Source of the DNA: a virus
Lineage: Duplodnaviria; Caudoviricetes
Virus record (IMG/VR): IMGVR_UViG_3300022602_000102
Location: 1-59,984 of that record
DNA: 59,984 nucleotides
Direction: 5' to 3' (one strand)
Shown: positions 7,941-58,826 of the stretch, one piece after another
How the letters are laid out: every line of letters starts with the position of its first letter
Numbering within the stretch: position 1 is the first letter of the stretch
The notes under the pieces: model-generated
What the model was told of the DNA's origin: nothing
Seen by the model: only the letters and a program-made list of their open reading frames with translations
The model's database searches: none
Made by a program: the position numbers and the translations under genes

Positions 7941-8227
7941 TGGCATTAAAGAACGGCAAGCCCAATCCTCTGGATTATTACAACTTAAGGAGGGTTGAGT
8001 TTGCCTGCCCTCATTTTAAATACACTACTGTAGACAAATATAATCCTACTATAATCAAATCTATCGATACTTGGATACGCAAGCATTTAAATAATAGGTA
8101 TTACATAGGGCAAGGCATTGCACTGGATAATACCAATACAATAGTGTATAATACACGTATCGGTTTTGAAAGTGAGAAAGAACTCAGTTTTTTCACAATT
8201 GCCTGTCCTTTGTTACAAAGTAGATAA
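7940..8227 (+). CDS. Hypothetical protein
   Basis: 95-aa ORF, TAATG coupling. Confidence 0.7.
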   Translation: MALKNGKPNPLDYYNLRRVEFACPHFKYTTVDKYNPTIIKSIDTWIRKHLNNRYYIGQGIALDNTNTIVYNTRIGFESEKELSFFTIACPLLQSR

Positions 8228-8262
8228 TTAAGTTAGTACTTTATCAAACAAGGAGATTCTAA

Positions 8263-8529
8263 ATGGCTGATGTACAAAATCAACAACCCGCAACAGATGC
8301 ACAAGGTTCTACAGAACTAACAATCAATGACCTAAACGCAATGAAAGTTATCATTGATATCGCTAGCTCACGTGGCGCTTTTAAACCAAACGAAATGGTT
8401 GCTATAGGTCAAACTTACACCAAACTAGAAACATTTTTAAATGCTGTAGCCGCACAACAAGCCGCAAATCCAGCGCCAGCTGCTCCAACAGCCGCAGACG
8501 CCGCAGGTGCAGTATCCGCAGGAGCTTAA
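8263..8529 (+). CDS. Hypothetical protein with Ala/Pro-rich tail
   Basis: AGGAG RBS, 88 aa. Confidence 0.7.
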   Translation: MADVQNQQPATDAQGSTELTINDLNAMKVIIDIASSRGAFKPNEMVAIGQTYTKLETFLNAVAAQQAANPAPAAPTAADAAGAVSAGA

Positions 8530-8530
8530 T

Positions 8531-9127
8531 ATGGCCGAAATTAAACACGTAGGCCGTGTTATTGCCACTAACAAAAAATGCTTAGTGGCATATCGTACCC
8601 TACCAGGCGATGCAAGTTTCTGTTTGATCATTCCAACAGAAAATTTACCAGATATCTACCACGATGCTATTATCAACTTAGTTGAAAGTCAAACAGGACA
8701 AGATGCTAATGAGTTTGCAGATGCGTTGGCAAGATCGCAATTCCCCGATGGTAACAATATGTTACGTTCCTTACATGGTTCAAATCGATTAATCAAAGCG
8801 CCGACGAGTGCGATCGAAATGCTTCCTGCTCCTGGAACTAGTATTGTCCTAAGTGAATTGAATCAGATGATTGCCGAAATGCGCGGTGTAACCGTAGATG
8901 ACCTAAGCATTAAAGAAAGCTTTGAAAAGAAAGTTGAAGAACCGAAAGCTACTGCTACAGTAAAAGAAACACCTGCTATTGTTAACGCTGAAGTAATTCC
9001 AACAACATTTGAAAGCCCAGAAGCTGAGGCAAAATTCTATCGTAGCCAAGCTGATAAATTAGCTAAAGAGGCGGCTAACTTCCGTCGTAAAGCAGAGGAA
9101 CTGGCTCCGACCAAGAAAAAGGCGTAA
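8531..9127 (+). CDS. Hypothetical phage protein
   Basis: ATG 8531 after GGAG; C-terminal coiled coil. Confidence 0.75.
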   Translation: MAEIKHVGRVIATNKKCLVAYRTLPGDASFCLIIPTENLPDIYHDAIINLVESQTGQDANEFADALARSQFPDGNNMLRSLHGSNRLIKAPTSAIEMLPAPGTSIVLSELNQMIAEMRGVTVDDLSIKESFEKKVEEPKATATVKETPAIVNAEVIPTTFESPEAEAKFYRSQADKLAKEAANFRRKAEELAPTKKKA

Positions 9128-9448
9128 ATGACAAAATCGGGAAGAGTACTTCCCAAGGATGTCATAGCGCATTGGCCGGAAGTATTCGGTGATGTAAGAC
9201 TAAATGTAGTACCTCTTAGGTACTTACATTCCGTGCTGGTCAATTTTAAAGATGGTAAAACTTGGGAAATAAAAGTAACAGCGAAAACAAAACGTGAAGG
9301 TTGGAGTACGTTTGAAAGAAATCTCTCCGAACTGGTAAAGAACTACGAGGCTAATATAGACAATGTAGATTTTAAACTAGATACTGACCGTGTAAGAAAA
9401 GATGTCGAAAAAGGCACCGAGAAATTTTTAAAGAAAAAGAAGTTATAA
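9128..9448 (+). CDS. Hypothetical protein
   Basis: 106-aa ORF abutting the upstream stop. Confidence 0.7.
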   Translation: MTKSGRVLPKDVIAHWPEVFGDVRLNVVPLRYLHSVLVNFKDGKTWEIKVTAKTKREGWSTFERNLSELVKNYEANIDNVDFKLDTDRVRKDVEKGTEKFLKKKKL

Positions 9449-9451
9449 ATA

Positions 9452-10129
9452 ATGAATGTCCGACTACTTAGCTACAGCCAGCCAACAGCAGAATTCTCCA
9501 ATATGGGAATCGCTGATGCCCAGGAACTTATTGCCTATTGCGCCAGAGTTTCAAACCCAAGTAATCAATTCAACACAGAAACTAGTGAGAAGCTTATCAA
9601 GTACCTCATTAAACATCAGCACTGGAGCCCTCTTGAAATGGTCTCAGCTTGCATTGAAATTACAACAACTCGAGACATTGCCCGTCAGATCCTTAGACAC
9701 AGAAGTTTTAGTTTCCAAGAGTTTAGCCAACGCTATGCTGACCCGACAAAGGATCTCAACTTTGTACTTAGAGATGCCAGAAAACAAGACCTCGAGAATA
9801 GACAAAATAGTGTAGAGTTAGATGTTCATAATAATGACGAAGATCGATTCCTTGCCTATCAATGGGAACGTATGCAAGAGCTAGTTATTAAACAAAGTCG
9901 TGAAGCATACGAATGGGCTATTCTAAAAGGTATCGCCAAAGAACAAGCCCGTGCTGTACTACCAGAAGGGTTGATTGAAAGTAGAATTTATATGAATGGT
10001 ACTCTACGCAGTTGGGTACATTTTATAGAACTACGTAGTGCCCACGGCACACAAAAAGAGCACCAACTAGTGGCGCTCGAATGTGCTCGTGTTATTAGCG
10101 AAATATTCCCAATGCTGGGTGATCTTTAA
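9452..10129 (+). CDS. thyX: Flavin-dependent thymidylate synthase ThyX
   Basis: HWSPLE, QILRHRSFSFQEFSQRY (RHRx7S), EQARAVLP, LRSWVHFIELR. Confidence 0.95.
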   Translation: MNVRLLSYSQPTAEFSNMGIADAQELIAYCARVSNPSNQFNTETSEKLIKYLIKHQHWSPLEMVSACIEITTTRDIARQILRHRSFSFQEFSQRYADPTKDLNFVLRDARKQDLENRQNSVELDVHNNDEDRFLAYQWERMQELVIKQSREAYEWAILKGIAKEQARAVLPEGLIESRIYMNGTLRSWVHFIELRSAHGTQKEHQLVALECARVISEIFPMLGDL

Positions 10130-47318: not shown

Positions 47319-47975
47319 ATGAAATATAAAATTGATTATTATGGATACGTTTACGAGTGGACAAATACTAAGAATGAGAAAAAGTATATTGGATCTCATT
47401 ACGGATCTGTGGATGATTATTATATAGGATCTGGTAAGGCATTTAAGCCAGCATACACTCGAAATCCAGATCTTTTTAAGATGAATGTATTAGAATATCT
47501 TATTGAAGACGATAAAAAACTACTGTTAAAAAAAGAGCAAGAATGGTTGGACCGTATTCCCAATATTAGAGAAAATAAAACTTATTATAATCTAAATAAT
47601 TATTCTTTAGGCGGGTCGAGCCATATAACAAGAAAACATATTGAAAAAAGATCAAATACATTAAAAGAAAAACACGCAAAATTAGGTCTGAGCGAGGCGG
47701 AACGATTATCCTACAAAACTAAAATTGAAACAAGACTAACAAGAATCGCGTCCGTAGGGTTTACAAAAAAAGAAAAAGAACAACATGCAAAATACGGATT
47801 CCAGGTACAAGTAACTACACCCAACGGCGAGATTAAAATATTTGATTCATGCGGGCAAGCAACAAGAGCATTAGGAATAGATGTACAATACGGATTAAAA
47901 GTTTGCATCAAAAATCTTGATTTTCGAGGTTATAAGATAGTAAAATTAAGAGATCCATTAGTGGATTGTAGATAA
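47319..47975 (+). CDS. Free-standing GIY-YIG homing endonuclease (Seg-like)
   Basis: GYVYEWTN..N.KKYIGSH, Y.GSG, EQEWL, YYNLN; C-terminal FDSCGQATRALGI helix-turn-helix; inserted between gp55 and gp47. Confidence 0.82.
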   Translation: MKYKIDYYGYVYEWTNTKNEKKYIGSHYGSVDDYYIGSGKAFKPAYTRNPDLFKMNVLEYLIEDDKKLLLKKEQEWLDRIPNIRENKTYYNLNNYSLGGSSHITRKHIEKRSNTLKEKHAKLGLSEAERLSYKTKIETRLTRIASVGFTKKEKEQHAKYGFQVQVTTPNGEIKIFDSCGQATRALGIDVQYGLKVCIKNLDFRGYKIVKLRDPLVDCR

Positions 47976-47983
47976 AGGAAAAT

Positions 47984-48997
47984 ATGGAAAATTTATTTAA
48001 GAAAGCGGCTGTATTTACAGATCTCCATCTTGGACTGAAAAGTAATTCGTCAATTCATAATCAAGACTGCGAAGATTTTGTTGACTGGTTCATATCTAAA
48101 GCAAAATCCGAAGGATGTGACACAGGATTATTTCTTGGAGATTTTCATCATAATCGAAATACATTAAATGTAGTTACAATGGATTACTCGTTGAGAGTTC
48201 TGGAAAAGCTCGGTCAGGCGTTTGATAACTTCTATTTCTTTCCTGGTAATCATGATTTGTATTACAAAGACAAACGGGACATACACAGTGTGGAGTTTGG
48301 AAAGTATATACCTGGTATCACTGTGGTACATGAGCCTACTACTATTGGAGATGTCACGCTGTGTCCCTGGCTGGTTGGTGAAGAATGGAAATCAATAAGC
48401 AAAAAAGGTGGCAAGTATTGTTTTGGACATTTTGAATTACCTAAATTCTTTATGAATGCCATGGTACAAATGCCTGATCACGGCGAACTTCAAGTAGATG
48501 CGTTCAAGGGGTTTGAACTAGGATTCAGTGGGCACTTTCATAAACGCCAACAAAATGAAAATATGATTTATATTGGCAACGCATTTCCGCACAATTATTC
48601 AGATGCTTGGGATGATGAGCGTGGTATGATGGTGTTAGAGTGGGGAGGCACTCCCACGTATTTTACTTGGCCTGGACAACCTACATTTCGTACAGTTAAA
48701 TTAAGCCAGCTAATCGATGAAGCTGATAAAATTATTAAACCTAAACAACATCTTCGTGTGACTTTAGACATTGATATTAGTTTTGAAGAAGCTAGTTTTA
48801 TTAAAGAAAAATTTATTGGTGATTATGACATTCGTGAACTAACACTAATTGCAGAAAAGAAAGAAGCTGAAATTAATACTAGTATTGATATCCAGGCTTT
48901 TGAAAGCGTAGATCAAATTGTAAGCAATCAGATTATTAGTATTGACAGCGAAACATATAACAAAAACACCTTGTTGGAAATTTATAATAGCTTATGA
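47984..48997 (+). CDS. gp47: Recombination nuclease subunit (gp47 / Mre11-SbcD-like)
   Basis: FTDLHLG, LGDFHH, PGNHD, FGHFE, SGHFH phosphoesterase motifs. Confidence 0.92.
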   Translation: MENLFKKAAVFTDLHLGLKSNSSIHNQDCEDFVDWFISKAKSEGCDTGLFLGDFHHNRNTLNVVTMDYSLRVLEKLGQAFDNFYFFPGNHDLYYKDKRDIHSVEFGKYIPGITVVHEPTTIGDVTLCPWLVGEEWKSISKKGGKYCFGHFELPKFFMNAMVQMPDHGELQVDAFKGFELGFSGHFHKRQQNENMIYIGNAFPHNYSDAWDDERGMMVLEWGGTPTYFTWPGQPTFRTVKLSQLIDEADKIIKPKQHLRVTLDIDISFEEASFIKEKFIGDYDIRELTLIAEKKEAEINTSIDIQAFESVDQIVSNQIISIDSETYNKNTLLEIYNSL

Positions 48998-50775
48998 GTA
49001 TAAAACTTAAAGAATTAACAGTTAAAAATTTTATGAGTGTGGGCAACCAGACCCAGGCAGTAAACTTTGCCCAAGAAAATCTAACCCTTGTACTGGGTGA
49101 AAATTTAGATCAAGGCGGCGATGATAGTGGTTCACGTAACGGTACAGGTAAGACAACTATTGTAAATGCCTTGAGTTTTGCCCTGTTTGGCAATGCATTA
49201 ACTAATATTAAAAAAGATAACTTGATTAATAAAACCAACAATAAAAATATGTTGGTAACACTGGCTTTTGAAAAAGATGGCACAGACTATCGAATTGAAC
49301 GTGGCCGCAAACCTAATGTACTACAGTTTTTTGTTAACGACCAAGCTCAAGAAACTGAAGAAACAGATGATGCACAAGGCGACATGCGTGAAACACAAAA
49401 GGATTTAGATGACCTGTTAGGCATGAGCCATGACATGTTCAAACATATTGTTGCTCTTAACACATACACTGAGCCGTTTTTAAGTATGCGGGCCAATGAC
49501 CAGCGTGTGATCATTGAGCAATTACTAGGTATTACGCTTCTTAGTGAAAAAGCAGATGCACTCAAGGAATTGGTCAAACTGACCAAAGATGCTATTACAC
49601 AAGAAACAGCTAACATTGAAGCTACCAAACGCAGTAACGAAGGCATACAAAAAAGTATTGATAGTCTACTGACTAAACAAAATGCCTGGAATACACAACA
49701 TGCACAAGATTTAGAAAAGATTGGTCGTGCTATTGTAGAACTTGAAAGTGTGGATATTGAAACTGAACTTGCGAAGCACAGCGAGCTGAAAGATTTTTCT
49801 GAAAAATCAGCGAAGCTGAAAAGCCTAGAAAAGGAGCAAGCTACTTTGAATAGCGCGATAGCGCAAGCAGAGCGAAGCGTTACGAAGTATAACGGCGAGC
49901 TTGCCAAGTTGGCTAACAAGACCTGTCACGCATGTGAACAAGAACTACATGATCACAAACATGAAGAAATGACCACTGTTGCACAGGGTCACCTCGATGA
50001 AGCAAAAAAATACTATGACAAAGTTTCAAAAGACTTAGAAAAAATTCAAGCCGAGATTCAAGCAGTGGGCGAAATACCCCGCAAGCCTGTTACTTACTAT
50101 GATACAATTGAGCAAGCTCTTAAGCATCAAAACAACTTAAAGACCTTGGAAAATCAACTGGTACAAAAAAGCCACGATGCTGATCCTTATCAAGAGCAAA
50201 TTGACGAACTAACCGACACAGCTCTCCAGGAAATTTCATGGGACCGTGTTAATGAACTTAGCAGTCTCAAGGATCATCAAGAGTTCTTGCTTAAACTGTT
50301 GACATCAAAAGATTCGTTTATTCGTAAAAAGATCATAGATCAAAATCTAGCCTACTTGAACAATCGTCTAACCTATTACTTGGACAAGATGGGTTTGCCA
50401 CACAGCGTACTATTTCAAAATGATCTTACAGTTATGATTACTCAACTGGGGCAGGACTTGGATTTTGACAACCTATCACGGGGTGAGCGCAATCGTCTTA
50501 TCTTGGGTCTGAGTTGGGCGTTCCGCGATGTATGGGAAAGCCTATATCAAAACATCAATTTACTGTTTGTAGATGAACTAATTGACAATGGCTTGGATGC
50601 TTCGGGTGTAGAAGGCGCACTGGCTGTATTGAAAAAAATGGCTCGTGAACGCAAAAAGAACATATTCTTGATATCACACAAGGACGAACTAATTGGTCGT
50701 GTGAACAATGTGCTAAAAGTCGTTAAGGAAAATGGCTATACTAGCTATGCCAACGACTTAGAGATCAATGAGTAA
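48994..50775 (+). CDS. gp46: Recombination ATPase subunit (gp46 / Rad50-SbcC-like)
   Basis: KNFMSVGN, NGTGKTT, CHAC zinc hook, LSRGE signature, LFVDE, ISH. Confidence 0.92.
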   Translation: MSIKLKELTVKNFMSVGNQTQAVNFAQENLTLVLGENLDQGGDDSGSRNGTGKTTIVNALSFALFGNALTNIKKDNLINKTNNKNMLVTLAFEKDGTDYRIERGRKPNVLQFFVNDQAQETEETDDAQGDMRETQKDLDDLLGMSHDMFKHIVALNTYTEPFLSMRANDQRVIIEQLLGITLLSEKADALKELVKLTKDAITQETANIEATKRSNEGIQKSIDSLLTKQNAWNTQHAQDLEKIGRAIVELESVDIETELAKHSELKDFSEKSAKLKSLEKEQATLNSAIAQAERSVTKYNGELAKLANKTCHACEQELHDHKHEEMTTVAQGHLDEAKKYYDKVSKDLEKIQAEIQAVGEIPRKPVTYYDTIEQALKHQNNLKTLENQLVQKSHDADPYQEQIDELTDTALQEISWDRVNELSSLKDHQEFLLKLLTSKDSFIRKKIIDQNLAYLNNRLTYYLDKMGLPHSVLFQNDLTVMITQLGQDLDFDNLSRGERNRLILGLSWAFRDVWESLYQNINLLFVDELIDNGLDASGVEGALAVLKKMARERKKNIFLISHKDELIGRVNNVLKVVKENGYTSYANDLEINE

Positions 50776-51037
50776 ACACGTTGAGCCCACTCCATATCAA
50801 AATGAAGAGTCGCATGAGCAACTCATGGCGGCGTTTAGGGAATATTTTAAGGCAAATCAAGATTGGCAAGCAAAAGGCACTCGCAGGGCAGGTGAAAACA
50901 TGCGCTACTGGCTAGCGCAGATTCGTATAATAGCTCGTGATCGCAGAGCACATGTACAGCAGTACCGTGTATGGCTGGATCGAGACAAGGCTCTACGCAA
51001 GGCAAACCAAAAGGCAAAGGGTACCAATGAAGAATAA
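50768..51037 (+). CDS. Hypothetical protein
   Basis: 89-aa basic helical ORF overlapping the gp46 stop. Confidence 0.65.
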   Translation: MSKHVEPTPYQNEESHEQLMAAFREYFKANQDWQAKGTRRAGENMRYWLAQIRIIARDRRAHVQQYRVWLDRDKALRKANQKAKGTNEE

Positions 51038-51049
51038 TATACATACATT

Positions 51050-51475
51050 ATGTCTTGGTACTATAACAATGAAATCGTTGAATCGCTTCCGGAAGAATGT
51101 GTTGGGTTTGTATATTTGATAACAAACATGACTTCTGGGCGTATGTACATAGGCAAAAAATTAGCAAAATTCTCAAAAACTACTTACAAAACAGTAAAAC
51201 TCAAGAACGGCACTAAGAAGAAAAAGAAAATCCGTAGCAAAATTGATTCAGACTGGCGGGACTATTACGGTAGTTCGCCTGAATTAACCAAGGATGTTAC
51301 GCAGTTAGGTACAGAAAATTTTCGCAGAGAAATACTTTTCTATTGTAAATCAAAGGCAGAGTGTAGTTATATCGAAGCTCGTGAACAGTTTTCACGCAGA
51401 GTTCTTGAATCCGATCTCTATTATAATGGTCATATTCAAGTGCGTGTACATGGTTCACATATACTCAAGTCCTAA
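51050..51475 (+). CDS. Small GIY-YIG nuclease (single catalytic domain, endonuclease II-like)
   Basis: GFVYLITN..SGRMYIGKK, SDWRDYYGSS, FRREIL, YIEAREQ, YYNG; Lys-rich insertion. Confidence 0.78.
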   Translation: MSWYYNNEIVESLPEECVGFVYLITNMTSGRMYIGKKLAKFSKTTYKTVKLKNGTKKKKKIRSKIDSDWRDYYGSSPELTKDVTQLGTENFRREILFYCKSKAECSYIEAREQFSRRVLESDLYYNGHIQVRVHGSHILKS

Positions 51476-51955
51476 TAATTCAGGCCGTTTAATCACCAAA
51501 TAAGCCCGCACTGGCGTTGTTAAAGTGCCCGAAATCCGTTCTGATGTGTGACGGTAAGGTAGTTCTGCTTGGTGACAGAGTTATACATTACTATCCTTTA
51601 CAGGACGATGATCAGATACGCCGCTAACTGGTTTAATGTGTAAGTAGTTGAGAATAAGGCTAAAAGAGGGGTAGTAGCCCCACGGTTTAATATGTGTTAG
51701 CGTATGTATTAAGCCCGCCGTCATATAAAGACATAGCTCGTGGTACCGGATGACCGCCACTGTAATGCTATAACGCTAAGGTGATATTGTGCAACTCAGA
51801 TAATGTCCATTTCGCTTTGCCCGCCAGGGCAAAGTGTGACTGAACAATCTAGATAATATCTTAACGCTTCGCGTTTTAATTAAAAGATTAACTACTCCTT
51901 AATAGTTCGAGCTCAAGCGAAGAACAGAAGAACGCAAGTTCTTCTTCCAGTACTA
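51476..51955 (+). ncRNA. Candidate large structured non-coding RNA, family unknown
   Basis: ~480-nt gap without a credible ORF; more than 12 helices, G-U pairs favouring the + strand, GCAA tetraloop, two possible loop-strand pseudoknots. Confidence 0.65.
51926..51945 (+). terminator. Hairpin AGAAGAAC-GCAA-GTTCTTCT, possible terminator or RNA 3' end
   Basis: Perfect 8-bp stem with GNRA loop just before the next late promoter; U-tract weak. Confidence 0.4.
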
Positions 51956-51963
51956 GATAAATA
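51956..51963 (+). promoter_or_regulatory. Putative late promoter GATAAATA
   Basis: 18 nt upstream of ATG 51982. Confidence 0.6.
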
Positions 51964-51981
51964 TCACATAGGAAACAACAA

Positions 51982-52992
51982 ATGCGTGTTATTGACATTA
52001 TAAGCCAAGATCTCAATGAGGGTAAAATCAGTACTCCTGTTGAGTTTATATGGGATTTATTTTTAAAATCTGAAGGACGTGCGGCTGCTCGAGAAGCAGT
52101 TGCGGCTACTGAAGCAGTTACCAAAGCGGCTGTTAAAAAAGGTGCTCCGTTAACTCCGGCAGAAATGGAACGTCTTGGCATTAAACCTGAACTACGTAAT
52201 AATCCTCAATGGACTAGACAAACCGAAGACAATGTTCGTATAGAGCTGGCCAAACGTGCTCCTAAACCTAAACCAATTAAAGAACCTAAGGCAACTGCCA
52301 AACCAACTACGGTCAAAGGTGCTCTCTCAGCCGCTGGTCTTTGGACTAACAAGGCCACAAGTCTGCTGAGCAAATTGGCCGCAGTGGGCATCAGTGTTGC
52401 TCCTTTTTATACCTACAACGAGAGAGTTGACATGTGGAAGGCCAAATTAGATGCAGGCGAATTACCAGGTGGACAAACACAGTTTGAAGAACTACGTCAA
52501 AAAGAAATGAGCATTGCTATTGCTACCTTTGCGGCCAGCTTAACTGGATTTTTTGCCATCAAGAGTGTTGGCCGTGGATCTAGTTGGTTGCTAGGATGGA
52601 TTCCAGGATTTAAACCTCTAATGAGTGTGGGCACAACTGTAGGCGGTGTTGCCCTAGAAGAATGGTTGCGTGGAGATGAAGGACGTAAATTGATTGCTCG
52701 AGCATTTGCCGAAGAAATATTCAAGTTGGACGAAATACTTGGTGCACCTGTTATACACGCAATAGATTTGTTTAAAGATAAAATTAAAGATGTTGTACCA
52801 CAAGCTGACAATAATATACGCAGTGACACTACATTGACTCCTGCAGACAAGGCTAGAATTGATGCTACCAGTGCTAAAGAACCTGATCAAAGCATGCCCA
52901 GTACAGATCCTAAAACTCAAGAATATCTAAAAGCCTATGGGTTTAAACAAACTCCAGGAACAGGTGGCGGCTTTAATTTTAAAAAGAATTAA
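51982..52992 (+). CDS. Hypothetical late protein with hydrophobic helices
   Basis: 336-aa ORF with AGGA RBS and late promoter. Confidence 0.7.
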   Translation: MRVIDIISQDLNEGKISTPVEFIWDLFLKSEGRAAAREAVAATEAVTKAAVKKGAPLTPAEMERLGIKPELRNNPQWTRQTEDNVRIELAKRAPKPKPIKEPKATAKPTTVKGALSAAGLWTNKATSLLSKLAAVGISVAPFYTYNERVDMWKAKLDAGELPGGQTQFEELRQKEMSIAIATFAASLTGFFAIKSVGRGSSWLLGWIPGFKPLMSVGTTVGGVALEEWLRGDEGRKLIARAFAEEIFKLDEILGAPVIHAIDLFKDKIKDVVPQADNNIRSDTTLTPADKARIDATSAKEPDQSMPSTDPKTQEYLKAYGFKQTPGTGGGFNFKKN

Positions 52993-58469: not shown

Positions 58470-58476
58470 ATACAAT

Positions 58477-58719
58477 ATGATTTTAAGAGAATTGTTTTAT
58501 ATTGATCCTGATACTAGGCACATAGCCAACGATTTGCGCTATGAGCCAAGTCGCGATACGAGTCAATTGCATAGAAGTGATGCACGTAAGACAAGATTAA
58601 CCTTAAGACAACTTAATGAACTACGCAAAAGTAGTGAAGCACACATACTGGAACAGGAAAGTGAGTTAGAGTTTATTCACGCAATGTACGCAACTCCCGA
58701 GCCTGCACCAGCACAATAA
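58477..58719 (+). CDS. Small head-associated hypothetical protein
   Basis: 80 aa after the portal gene; RKTRLTLRQLNELRK; CATAAATA at 58465-58472. Confidence 0.65.
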   Translation: MILRELFYIDPDTRHIANDLRYEPSRDTSQLHRSDARKTRLTLRQLNELRKSSEAHILEQESELEFIHAMYATPEPAPAQ

Positions 58720-58723
58720 ATAA

Positions 58724-58747
58724 AAAACGGCCAAAACAGGCTGTTTT
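58724..58747 (+). terminator. Putative intrinsic terminator
   Basis: AAAACGGCC-AAAACA-GGCTGTTTT directly after the stop codon. Confidence 0.5.
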
Positions 58748-58826
58748 CATGCCTTATCTATACACTTTTTTAACAAAAGTGTAAATATAATACAGCCTTG
58801 TAACACAAATCACAGGAGAAATAAAC

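Follow-up and report, generated by a model that had tools for sequence, protein, structure and literature searches.

The interval 51503-51945 on the + strand of the 59,984-bp window analysed here, positions 1 to 59,984 of virus record IMGVR_UViG_3300022602_000102, almost certainly specifies a real RNA of about 445 nucleotides (nt) that extends the Polynucleobacter-1 motif. The RNA follows the gene of a small predicted GIY-YIG nuclease and is found in many freshwater T4-like phages and in some bacteria, probably Polynucleobacter. It combines a multi-domain fold, including three pseudoknots supported by covariation, with two 7-nt words, X1 (51798-51804, +) and X2 (51851-51857, +), which vary from copy to copy and stay identical to each other. 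Measured against the portions of the literature that our searches covered, the 5' third is already known, and the 3' two thirds, the three pseudoknots, the distribution over phages and bacteria and the paired words are new.

A cmscan search of the whole window against Rfam release 15 at curated thresholds returned a single match, RF01718 (Polynucleobacter-1), at 51503-51643 (+). The match spans model positions 1-141 of 141 and scores 73.1 bits against a cut-off of 37, and all 13 relatives that hold the 5' part score 80.9-121.1 bits. The helices of the model are 87-100% paired in our alignment of copies (A1, see below), most of them with changes on both sides. This segment is a full-length member of RF01718, and the Rfam motif covers only the 5' third of the RNA. 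An earlier annotation of this DNA, made from the letters and a list of their open reading frames (hereafter the initial annotation), had proposed an undescribed phage non-coding RNA; because of the full-length match, which was also its own refuting test, the 5' third is not novel, and the description holds for the remaining ~300 nt, which match no Rfam family. A permissive search of 51300-52100 (E up to 10) added two matches, both sub-threshold: rli36 at 17.8 bits and cow-rumen-2 at 17.3 bits. No tRNA or tmRNA was found in the window. The Rfam models of RNase P, group I and group II introns, small self-cleaving ribozymes, GOLLD, ROOL, HEARO, OLE and raiA gave no match in the window at gathering thresholds or in 51300-52100 at E up to 10, in agreement with the initial view that no tRNA, tmRNA, RNase P, intron or ribozyme core is present. 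Two other candidates were rejected. An intron would interrupt an exon pair, and none is found, the flanking genes being separate and either variable between loci or convergent. A type III toxin-antitoxin RNA would carry tandem repeats of a full unit beside an endoribonuclease toxin gene, and 51400-52050 has no tandem repeats, the only repeated elements being the 7-nt words and their short flanks.

The table row for Polynucleobacter-1 in Weinberg et al. 2010 (PMC2864571) gives it as a likely RNA, likely cis-regulatory, with its riboswitch status open, and the same paper lists Burkholderiales and fresh water or estuary as its sources; within the parts of the literature that our search returned, the motif is named in that paper only. 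The RNA described here shares its hairpins with this motif, as well as the habitats (fresh water, Burkholderiales). It differs from the 141-nt Rfam model in being ~300 nt longer, in having two more pseudoknots and in carrying the paired X words; moreover, most copies found here are in T4-like phages, and their location is not that of a 5' untranslated region (UTR). The position expected of a cis-regulator is a tentative label of RF01718 and not part of its defining structure, so that membership stands.

Copies of the RNA were collected by two routes. The protein route gave at least 586 viral-contig relatives of the GIY-YIG protein, among which 80 loci at 74-91% identity were kept. The RNA route used a 17-nt core pattern (51742-58), which occurs in at least 119 viral contigs; 114 of the 119 matches listed hold the RNA. 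The resulting 139 full-length copies were reduced to 119 distinct sequences, which together with the window form the 120 copies of alignment A1, aligned by sequence only. These are 51-87% identical to the window (median 60%), and conservation runs from 51503 to 51945. Pairing was counted for the RNAalifold consensus plus the first pseudoknot of the initial annotation (103 pairs) and compared with 500 shuffles. In A1, 91.0% of cells are paired versus 77.8% in shuffles (0 of 500 as high), and sliding the partners by 1-3 columns lowers the figure to 35-43%. Changes on both sides were seen in 73 of the 103 pairs, and the covariation score was 0.402, compared with 0.165 for shuffled and 0.06-0.09 for slid partners. 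Collecting and aligning the regions 3' of GIY-YIG homologues, as the initial annotation had advised, therefore revealed both conservation and covariation. Its other expectation, that the region would fold better than shuffled controls, was not confirmed for the single sequence, whose folding energy does not stand out (z = -2.11 for the + strand and -1.91 for the - strand). The RNA lies on the + strand, as had been correctly deduced from G-U pairs; it is placed there by invariant pairs of this kind, such as 51610/51633, which is GU in 118 of 120 copies. Since compensatory changes and strand-specific G-U pairs are features of an RNA, we rejected the replication origin that had been named as the main alternative.

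Domain A (51503..51643, +) coincides with RF01718. Its first hairpin, 51508-12/51524-28, is 98.5% paired, with all five pairs changing on both sides, and is followed by 51535-42/51547-55 (87.2%) and 51564-66/51577-79 (93.2%). The long-range helix 51581-90/51634-43 (94.9%) encloses the CC/GG pairing at 51595-96/51603-04 (99.6%) and the hairpin 51610-14/51625-33, which covaries (51613/51630 is CG in 84 copies, GC in 22 and AU in 7). Columns 51594/51606, beside 51593/51605, swap U..C for C..U (81 versus 39 sequences), which looks like an A-C mismatch moved one step beside the CC/GG hairpin (UAUCC..GGACG versus UACCC..GGAUG). Domain B (51656..51779, +) is not in Rfam. It comprises the helix 51658-60/51717-19, the helix 51668-71/51678-81 (87.3% paired), a 13-bp stem at 51684-96/51703-15 (90.0%, with 12 of 13 pairs changing on both sides) and a three-part stem built from 51734-37/51767-70, 51740-43/51757-60 and 51747-49/51754-56, these nested helices of 51734-70 being 88-100% paired. 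The near-invariant core GGUACCGGAYRACCGCC lies at 51742-58 (+). An optional insert of 30-55 nt, rich in repeated UUAUAG/AUUAUAG units, is present between 51766 and 51767 (A1 columns ~401-453) in copies such as L018, L036, L090, L091 and L137.

Domain C (51780..51861, +) is made of two similar modules, each standing after a helix and ending in CUC or UCU followed by the 7-nt word X. The hairpin 51814-21/51827-34, flanked by X1 and X2, is 86.4% paired. One copy (L084:8263-8654) lacks ~70 nt equivalent to 51771-51840 of the window, namely X1, its module and the hairpin, and retains X2; either a natural deletion or an error of assembly may be the cause. Further 3' are a small variable hairpin, AACGC-UUC-GCGUU (51863..51875, +), missing in about a fifth of copies, and the 3' end block (51906..51945, +; 94-98% paired). 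The latter contains 51907-08/51922-23 with 51911-12/51917-18, in a conserved GAGC..GCGAA block, and the terminal GCAA-loop hairpin 51926-33/51938-45, which is 98.2% paired with changes on both sides in all eight pairs and is not followed by a U-tract. Nearly all hairpins listed in the initial annotation thus gain covariation support in the 120 copies. Support for AACGC-UUC-GCGUU is only moderate: 51863-67/51871-75 is 70.9% paired versus 64.5% shuffled in a gap-rich region, with its inner GC/CG pairs at 91.6%. Two direct repeats were also seen inside the RNA, UAAGCCCGC at 51501-51509 and 51710-51718, and GGUUUAAUGUGU/GGUUUAAUAUGU at 51630-51641 and 51684-51695, 54 nt apart.

The RNA is pseudoknotted, as had been suspected, although both partner pairs originally proposed fail in the alignment. 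The interaction 51540-45/51611-16 is 49.8% paired versus 48.4% shuffled, with 52 of 500 shuffles as high, and 51610-14 pair with 51625-33 and not with 51540-45. For 51513-17/51618-22, two G-C pairs are kept (75%) and the other pairs form in 33% of cells. A mutual-information scan of A1 for contiguous Watson-Crick interactions instead found three new pseudoknots. In domain A, 51504-06/51513-15 forms an H-type knot around the first hairpin (51504/51515 is GC in 100 copies and AU in 17). In domain B, 51721-24 pairs with the loop 51750-53 (51722/51752 is UA in 68 and CG in 52; 51723/51751 is GC in 76, AU in 37 and GU in 7), and the loop 51697-703 pairs with 51773-79 (51700/51776 is GC in 102 and AU in 17; 51701/51775 is CG in 101 and UA in 18; 51702/51774 is GC in 88 and AU in 29). 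Together the three are paired in 97.1% of cells, compared with 85.9% in shuffles (0 of 500 as high) and 23-56% when slid, and they hold 210 double-change cells versus 58 in shuffles. The bacterial copies provide an outside check on the first knot, which reads GAG...CUC there versus GCY...GGC in phages.

The words X1 and X2, both AGAUAAU in the window, are equal in 118 of 119 phage copies, among which nine words occur: AGAUAAU, GGAUAAU, GGAUGAU, GCAUAAU, GGAUGAA, AGAUGAG, AGAUGAA, AGAUGAU and GAAUGAU. Bacterial copies add five more, again with X1 = X2: AGCGAAA, AGAGAAA, GGAGAAA, AACAAAA and AUCAAAA. Normalised mutual information is 0.94-1.00 for 51798/51851, 51799/51852, 51802/51855 and 51804/51857 and at most 0.29 with the columns between; because these intervening columns are not linked, recombinational linkage is an unlikely cause of the identity. 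On a FastTree of the 445-nt RNA built without the X columns, 51798 requires 25 changes and 51851 requires 26. All 18 independent pairs on supported branches switch together at 51798/51851 (p 7.6e-6), as do all seven at 51802/51855.

Several simple reasons for the identity were examined and rejected. A helix between the repeats, 51796-801/51847-52, has no pair that changes on both sides, and was dismissed as the cause because it is disrupted in the GCAUAAU variant (10 sequences, ~5 events), where the two repeats have changed in the same way; mutual pairing of X1 with X2 found no covariation support. A 17-codon open reading frame (ORF) from an AUG in X1 to a UAA in X2 is not conserved, and the X1-X2 spacing of 47-61 nt occurs in all phases, with no helical phasing. 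Judged by eye, GGAUGAA, AGAUGAG and the bacterial AGCGAAA do not fit a DnaA box or a -10-like element. A search for a complement of X found none inside the RNA (best own-minus-control score 0.37 of 7) and none at a constant position in the flanking DNA, which was covered for up to several kb (74 sites versus 39-85 in controls). Nor does any residue of the GIY-YIG protein track X: a single protein column accounts for at most 15% of the variation at 51798. As X1 and X2 remain equal through their switches, we read them as two equivalent sites that would contact one kind of trans partner.

The window comes from a genome of roughly 350 kb, to judge from an estimated completeness of 17%; related loci lie on contigs of 346,856 and 345,154 bp. 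Upstream of the RNA, all on the + strand, are an Mre11-like gene (47984-48997), a Rad50-like gene (48994-50775), an 89-amino acid (aa) ORF (orf89) and the gene of the 141-aa SegE_GIY-YIG protein (51050-51475), a conserved syntenic gene of this phage clade that lies outside the RNA. Directly 3' of it comes a gap of 506 nt. A 336-aa gene (+) without a family starts 36 nt past the RNA end, followed on the - strand by a 97-aa gene and then a baseplate-hub gene (phrog_150). Whether this gap is the only large ORF-free one, as initially stated, depends on the ORFs counted: with those of at least 60 aa, 51476-51887 is indeed the sole internal ORF-free stretch of at least 250 nt, and with those of at least 100 aa, 7941-8506, 50776-51049 and 58470-58826 are ORF-free as well. 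Two of these, 7941-8506 and 58470-58826, have no Rfam match at curated thresholds and may harbour small genes or other RNAs. Just 5' of the Mre11-like gene, a 222-aa open frame has a weak second SegE_GIY-YIG match at 47331-47402 (+; 18.8 bits, below the cut-off) and may be another GIY-YIG endonuclease gene. A blastn search of 51050-52100 against 50,697 cultured phage records gave no match.

The product of 51050-51475 matches PF19835 (SegE_GIY-YIG) over the whole profile (E 2.5e-33, 115.4 bits versus a cut-off of 25). Across 151 distinct sequences its GIY/YIG motifs (GFVY, YIGKK) are conserved along with other residues, and we predict that it is a SegE-type GIY-YIG nuclease. The 141-aa protein consists of the catalytic domain alone, with no DNA-binding domain; it had no match in a PDB sequence search, and PADLOC reported no system apart from a weak homing-endonuclease match of this protein. 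The gene is more conserved than its surroundings, with 74-91% amino-acid identity across loci compared with 48-86% for the Rad50-like neighbour, which drops to 48-57% in part of the comparisons. The statement that the RNA comes directly after a small GIY-YIG nuclease proved general within the clade, as the RNA was found with an nhmmer profile of the gap in all 72 loci that extend at least 500 nt past the gene. It starts between -46 and +43 nt of the GIY-YIG stop codon in 66 of them; one locus has it at 127 nt, and the other five at 949-1035 nt, there behind an inserted gene. The genes inserted at this junction are of two different kinds. By the RNA-pattern route, a GIY-YIG nuclease precedes the RNA in 94 of 97 loci with room upstream, among the matches listed. 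In locus L138, the slot between the orf89 homologue and the RNA (9401-9686) is occupied by a 188-aa PDDEXK_15 'phage putative PDDEXK endonuclease' (8819-9382, +; E 5.6e-30) in place of the GIY-YIG gene, and because of this replacement some link between the RNA and the nuclease slot is possible.

The protein family is much wider than the RNA. By tblastn it occurs in 406 cultured phage records, all at less than 60% identity, and the phages that carry it include Synechococcus and Prochlorococcus myoviruses, Melnitz and Sinorhizobium phiM12. What follows the GIY-YIG gene is a stretch of 148 nt in Melnitz-3, an overlapping ORF in P-HM1 and 28 nt in phiM12, and none of the three has a match to RF01718 or the RNA profile. 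Small GIY-YIG homologues often bear the label 'T4-like GC 213' or, widely, 'NAD synthetase' (e.g. NC_015280.1 157848-158333 and NC_027204.1 162711-163124). The latter label, which phrog_447 shares, is probably a propagated misannotation, to judge from the match of these homologues to the GIY-YIG SegABCDEFG domain.

In bacteria, RF01718 scored above its cut-off in 17 of 151 sampled genomes of one genus, with two copies in four of the 17, and in only 1 of 151 genomes of a family-level sample. The genus is probably Polynucleobacter; one homologous protein cluster is labelled Polynucleobacter sp. by its source. The bacterial copies match the phage profile at the 5' domain and at the 3' end (profile positions 385-448), spaced as in an RNA of 460-510 nt. 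A divergent gene of 145-146 aa encoding a DUF6641 protein with a basic N-terminus lies 165-200 nt from the RNA in 18 of 19 bacterial loci (L326, L330-L347; gene e.g. at L328:8184-8621, -), and some loci have integrase genes nearby. Genes downstream of the RNA differ in family and strand, and no co-directional gene precedes it. PF19835 was absent from all five RNA-bearing bacterial genomes searched, in a search that finds the window gene as a positive control. The DUF6641 protein has no similarity to the GIY-YIG protein, is not encoded in the window, had no PADLOC match, returned only its own family in a protein atlas search and is not mentioned in the literature searched; 10 of 10 other neighbouring proteins tried belong to no Pfam family. 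The wider spread of the protein, the occurrence of the RNA without it and the variable junction between the two argue against a dependence of the RNA on the GIY-YIG protein, and their pairing is not obligatory. Of 120 stretches with the 17-nt pattern in bacterial and archaeal contigs, only 2 (L303 and L315) hold the RNA, the rest being chance occurrences in GC-rich DNA. Four short contigs (L303, L315, L324 and L335; 1.5-9 kb) carry the phage-type nuclease and the RNA and were binned into Bacteroidota metagenome-assembled genomes and one of a genus that is probably Polynucleobacter. They are probably phage fragments and therefore give no safe clue to the host; RF01718 was found in 0 of 25 genomes from the order of one such Bacteroidota bin.

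Metatranscriptome data, a check suggested by the initial annotation, gave partial coverage. Parts of 50900-52200 are held by seven lake-water runs, and the contigs of the four runs examined are identical to the window at a depth of 2-4. Among these RNA-library contigs, 51040-51536 and 51263-51554 bridge the GIY-YIG stop codon, starts at 51506 and 51507 were seen in two contigs of separate studies, a weak hint given their low depth, and one contig extends to 51808; no contig of the four runs covers 51809-52200, where the cover is too thin for this to carry meaning. This fits, on weak evidence, co-transcription with the nuclease gene and possible trimming at the conserved start of the RNA. A promoter and terminator scan found nothing above shuffles, nothing inside the RNA on the + strand and no terminator-like end. 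In ten phage loci the RNA fills the entire 431-532 nt from the GIY-YIG stop codon to the end of the convergent 97-aa gene. In viral contigs, relatives of the 336-aa gene that follows the RNA in the window were absent at other RNA copies (21 pattern matches, none confirmed), and the genes downstream of the RNA vary in phages as well as in bacteria. Because a convergent gene follows in ten loci and downstream genes vary, the RNA is not a 5' UTR element.

The explanation that we consider best as a whole, with about an even chance of being right, is an autonomous multi-domain RNA of ~445 nt with three pseudoknots. In freshwater T4-like phages it would be made as a 3' continuation of the GIY-YIG mRNA and perhaps trimmed near 51506; in bacteria, probably Polynucleobacter, it would be expressed from chromosomal islands, divergent from the DUF6641 gene and presumably from its own promoter. 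Its compact pseudoknotted body would present X1 and X2 as two structurally equivalent single-stranded 7-nt words. More tentatively, we propose recognition in trans at two sites as the mechanism: the words would be kept identical because each has to bind one common type of partner. A nucleic acid recognised through base pairing, with two sites or present as two copies, would be the simplest candidate.

A number of observations weigh against this proposal. Full autonomy leaves unexplained both the linkage to the nuclease in 72 of 72 loci and the replacement of one nuclease by another in L138. No partner of X was found, as complementarity to X in the window extends over no more than 12 nt, G-U pairs included, which is chance level; a dimeric protein, or cleavage at both sites, could account for the identity of the two words just as well. 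The tree was built from the 445-nt RNA, and phage recombination could inflate the number of switching events. The pseudoknots were scanned for and counted on the same alignment, so that the two are not independent. Finally, the RNA-library contigs are unstranded as well as shallow, and DNA carry-over is possible.

The linkage would be accounted for if the nuclease adjoins the RNA gene as its homing target or insertion slot, a reading that we regard as unlikely, that is silent on the function of the RNA and that is compatible with an autonomous RNA. Free-standing endonucleases settle by highly conserved sequences that they cut in rival genomes, and phage T4 SegB lies in and acts on a tRNA gene cluster. 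The frequency with which a GIY-YIG nuclease precedes the RNA (94 of 97), the PDDEXK_15 nuclease in the same slot in L138 and the long near-invariant stretches of the RNA, such as 51742-58, fit this picture. The GIY-YIG gene, however, is more conserved than its neighbours, encodes a catalytic domain only and keeps its syntenic place widely among RNA-less cultured phages, both cyanophages and other T4-like ones, which is hardly the pattern of a sporadic selfish endonuclease. We think it rather improbable that the RNA is instead a cis-acting 3' UTR element which stabilises, terminates or processes the upstream mRNA where this unit meets the convergent baseplate genes. Such an element would sit where the RNA does, close to the stop codon in 66 of 72 loci, after the inserted + strand gene where there is one (L042, L047), within RNA-library contigs that cross the stop codon and, in 10 loci, in the space between convergent genes. 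Yet 445 nt with three pseudoknots and conserved unpaired cores is far beyond the needs of stability or termination, there is no terminator-like end, in bacteria the RNA stands alone, with a divergent gene ~165-200 nt away and none in its own direction before it, and X1 = X2 has no role in this model. The idea of the initial annotation, a ribonucleoprotein with the adjacent nuclease in which the RNA serves as guide, scaffold or inhibitor, was weakened by our results and now appears improbable. It draws on the invariable linkage within the clade, the bare catalytic domain, the different nuclease in L138 and the bacterial copies, which are likewise paired with one small protein, DUF6641; against it stand a protein family far wider than the RNA, including three examined cultured phages without it, five of five bacterial genomes with the RNA and without PF19835, the lack of protein columns that follow 51798 and the insertion of two different genes at the junction.

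We consider it very unlikely that the RNA is a ribozyme with two equivalent sites of cutting or joining, CUC|X and UCU|X, which would free the hairpin unit of ~50 nt that lies between them. Two identical sites in equivalent modules around a hairpin, and near-invariant unpaired nucleotides in a pseudoknotted core, are what one would look for in such an RNA; no Rfam ribozyme or intron model matched even at E up to 10, however, there are no tandem units, the variation of site words that nevertheless stay equal is not accounted for, and no joint or end falls at the X sites in the RNA-library contigs, whose cover is too thin for this to count. Also very unlikely, and speculative throughout, is a programmable two-site recognition RNA of mobile DNA, whose body would dock a bare catalytic-domain DNA enzyme. 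In phages this would be the GIY-YIG or PD-(D/E)XK nuclease, in Polynucleobacter islands the DUF6641 protein or a small tyrosine recombinase. The identical words would then pair with a DNA or RNA sequence present twice, such as a core common to two recombination or cleavage sites, and a swap of words would retarget the system, which would explain X changes that are frequent yet always joint. We give the least credence, which is very little, to a riboswitch-like 5' UTR regulator of the downstream gene or a DNA element such as a replication origin. The former has in its favour the tentative cis-regulatory label in the Polynucleobacter-1 table row (PMC2864571) and the window gene that starts shortly past the RNA, and is opposed by the lack of relatives of that 336-aa gene at other copies, where downstream genes differ or are convergent. 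The latter is opposed by the RNA features already named, strand-specific G-U pairs and compensatory changes, and by an X1-X2 spacing without helical phasing.

Our analyses turn an orphan motif of 141 nt into an RNA of ~445 nt with three covariation-supported pseudoknots and remove its tentative 'cis-regulatory' label. The RNA is common, with the 17-nt pattern in at least 119 viral contigs and copies in 17 of 151 sampled genomes of one bacterial genus. To our knowledge, bacteria and phages have few RNAs that exceed 400 nt and adopt an intricate, conserved tertiary structure, and each that we know of (RNase P, group I and II introns, OLE, GOLLD, ROOL and HEARO) has proved or is expected to be biochemically unusual. 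That the 7-nt words have kept their identity over at least 18 independent switches resembles what guide or specificity segments produce, and the word pair gives experiments a definite point of attack. As Polynucleobacter strains are culturable, the question can be put to the test with the bacterial copies.

Comparison with known systems places the RNA near several others. IS110 bridge RNA and the omega RNA of IscB and TnpB are guide or bridge RNAs of mobile-element enzymes. By analogy, here too a structured RNA lies by a small DNA-cutting or DNA-joining enzyme on mobile DNA and holds short variable segments within a conserved fold; it differs in that no IS110, IscB or TnpB gene and no Rfam match to these RNAs is present, and in that its variable segments are identical to each other. 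Weak full-length alignments over domain B to cow-rumen-2 (RF02947) match a hairpin with a UUAGC loop, GCCGCC and UAGC..AC.GGAUGACC..GUAA.GC. Their scores, 17.3 bits for the window and 22.9 for L111 (E of 2-4), lie below the cut-off of 66, which is not membership; from this likeness, cow-rumen-2 is a possible distant relative of domain B. No counterpart of the identity-covarying word pair is known in GOLLD, ROOL, OLE or HEARO. These RNAs are likewise longer than 400 nt, have many helices and pseudoknots, are found on phages or mobile islands and have no known function, and they differ in that none of their Rfam models matches and in that no tRNA genes lie nearby here. GOLLD, ROOL and OLE are reported to form homo-oligomers (PMC12286853). 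The RNA is most likely an autonomous large structured RNA of mobile DNA, one that resembles GOLLD and ROOL in style.

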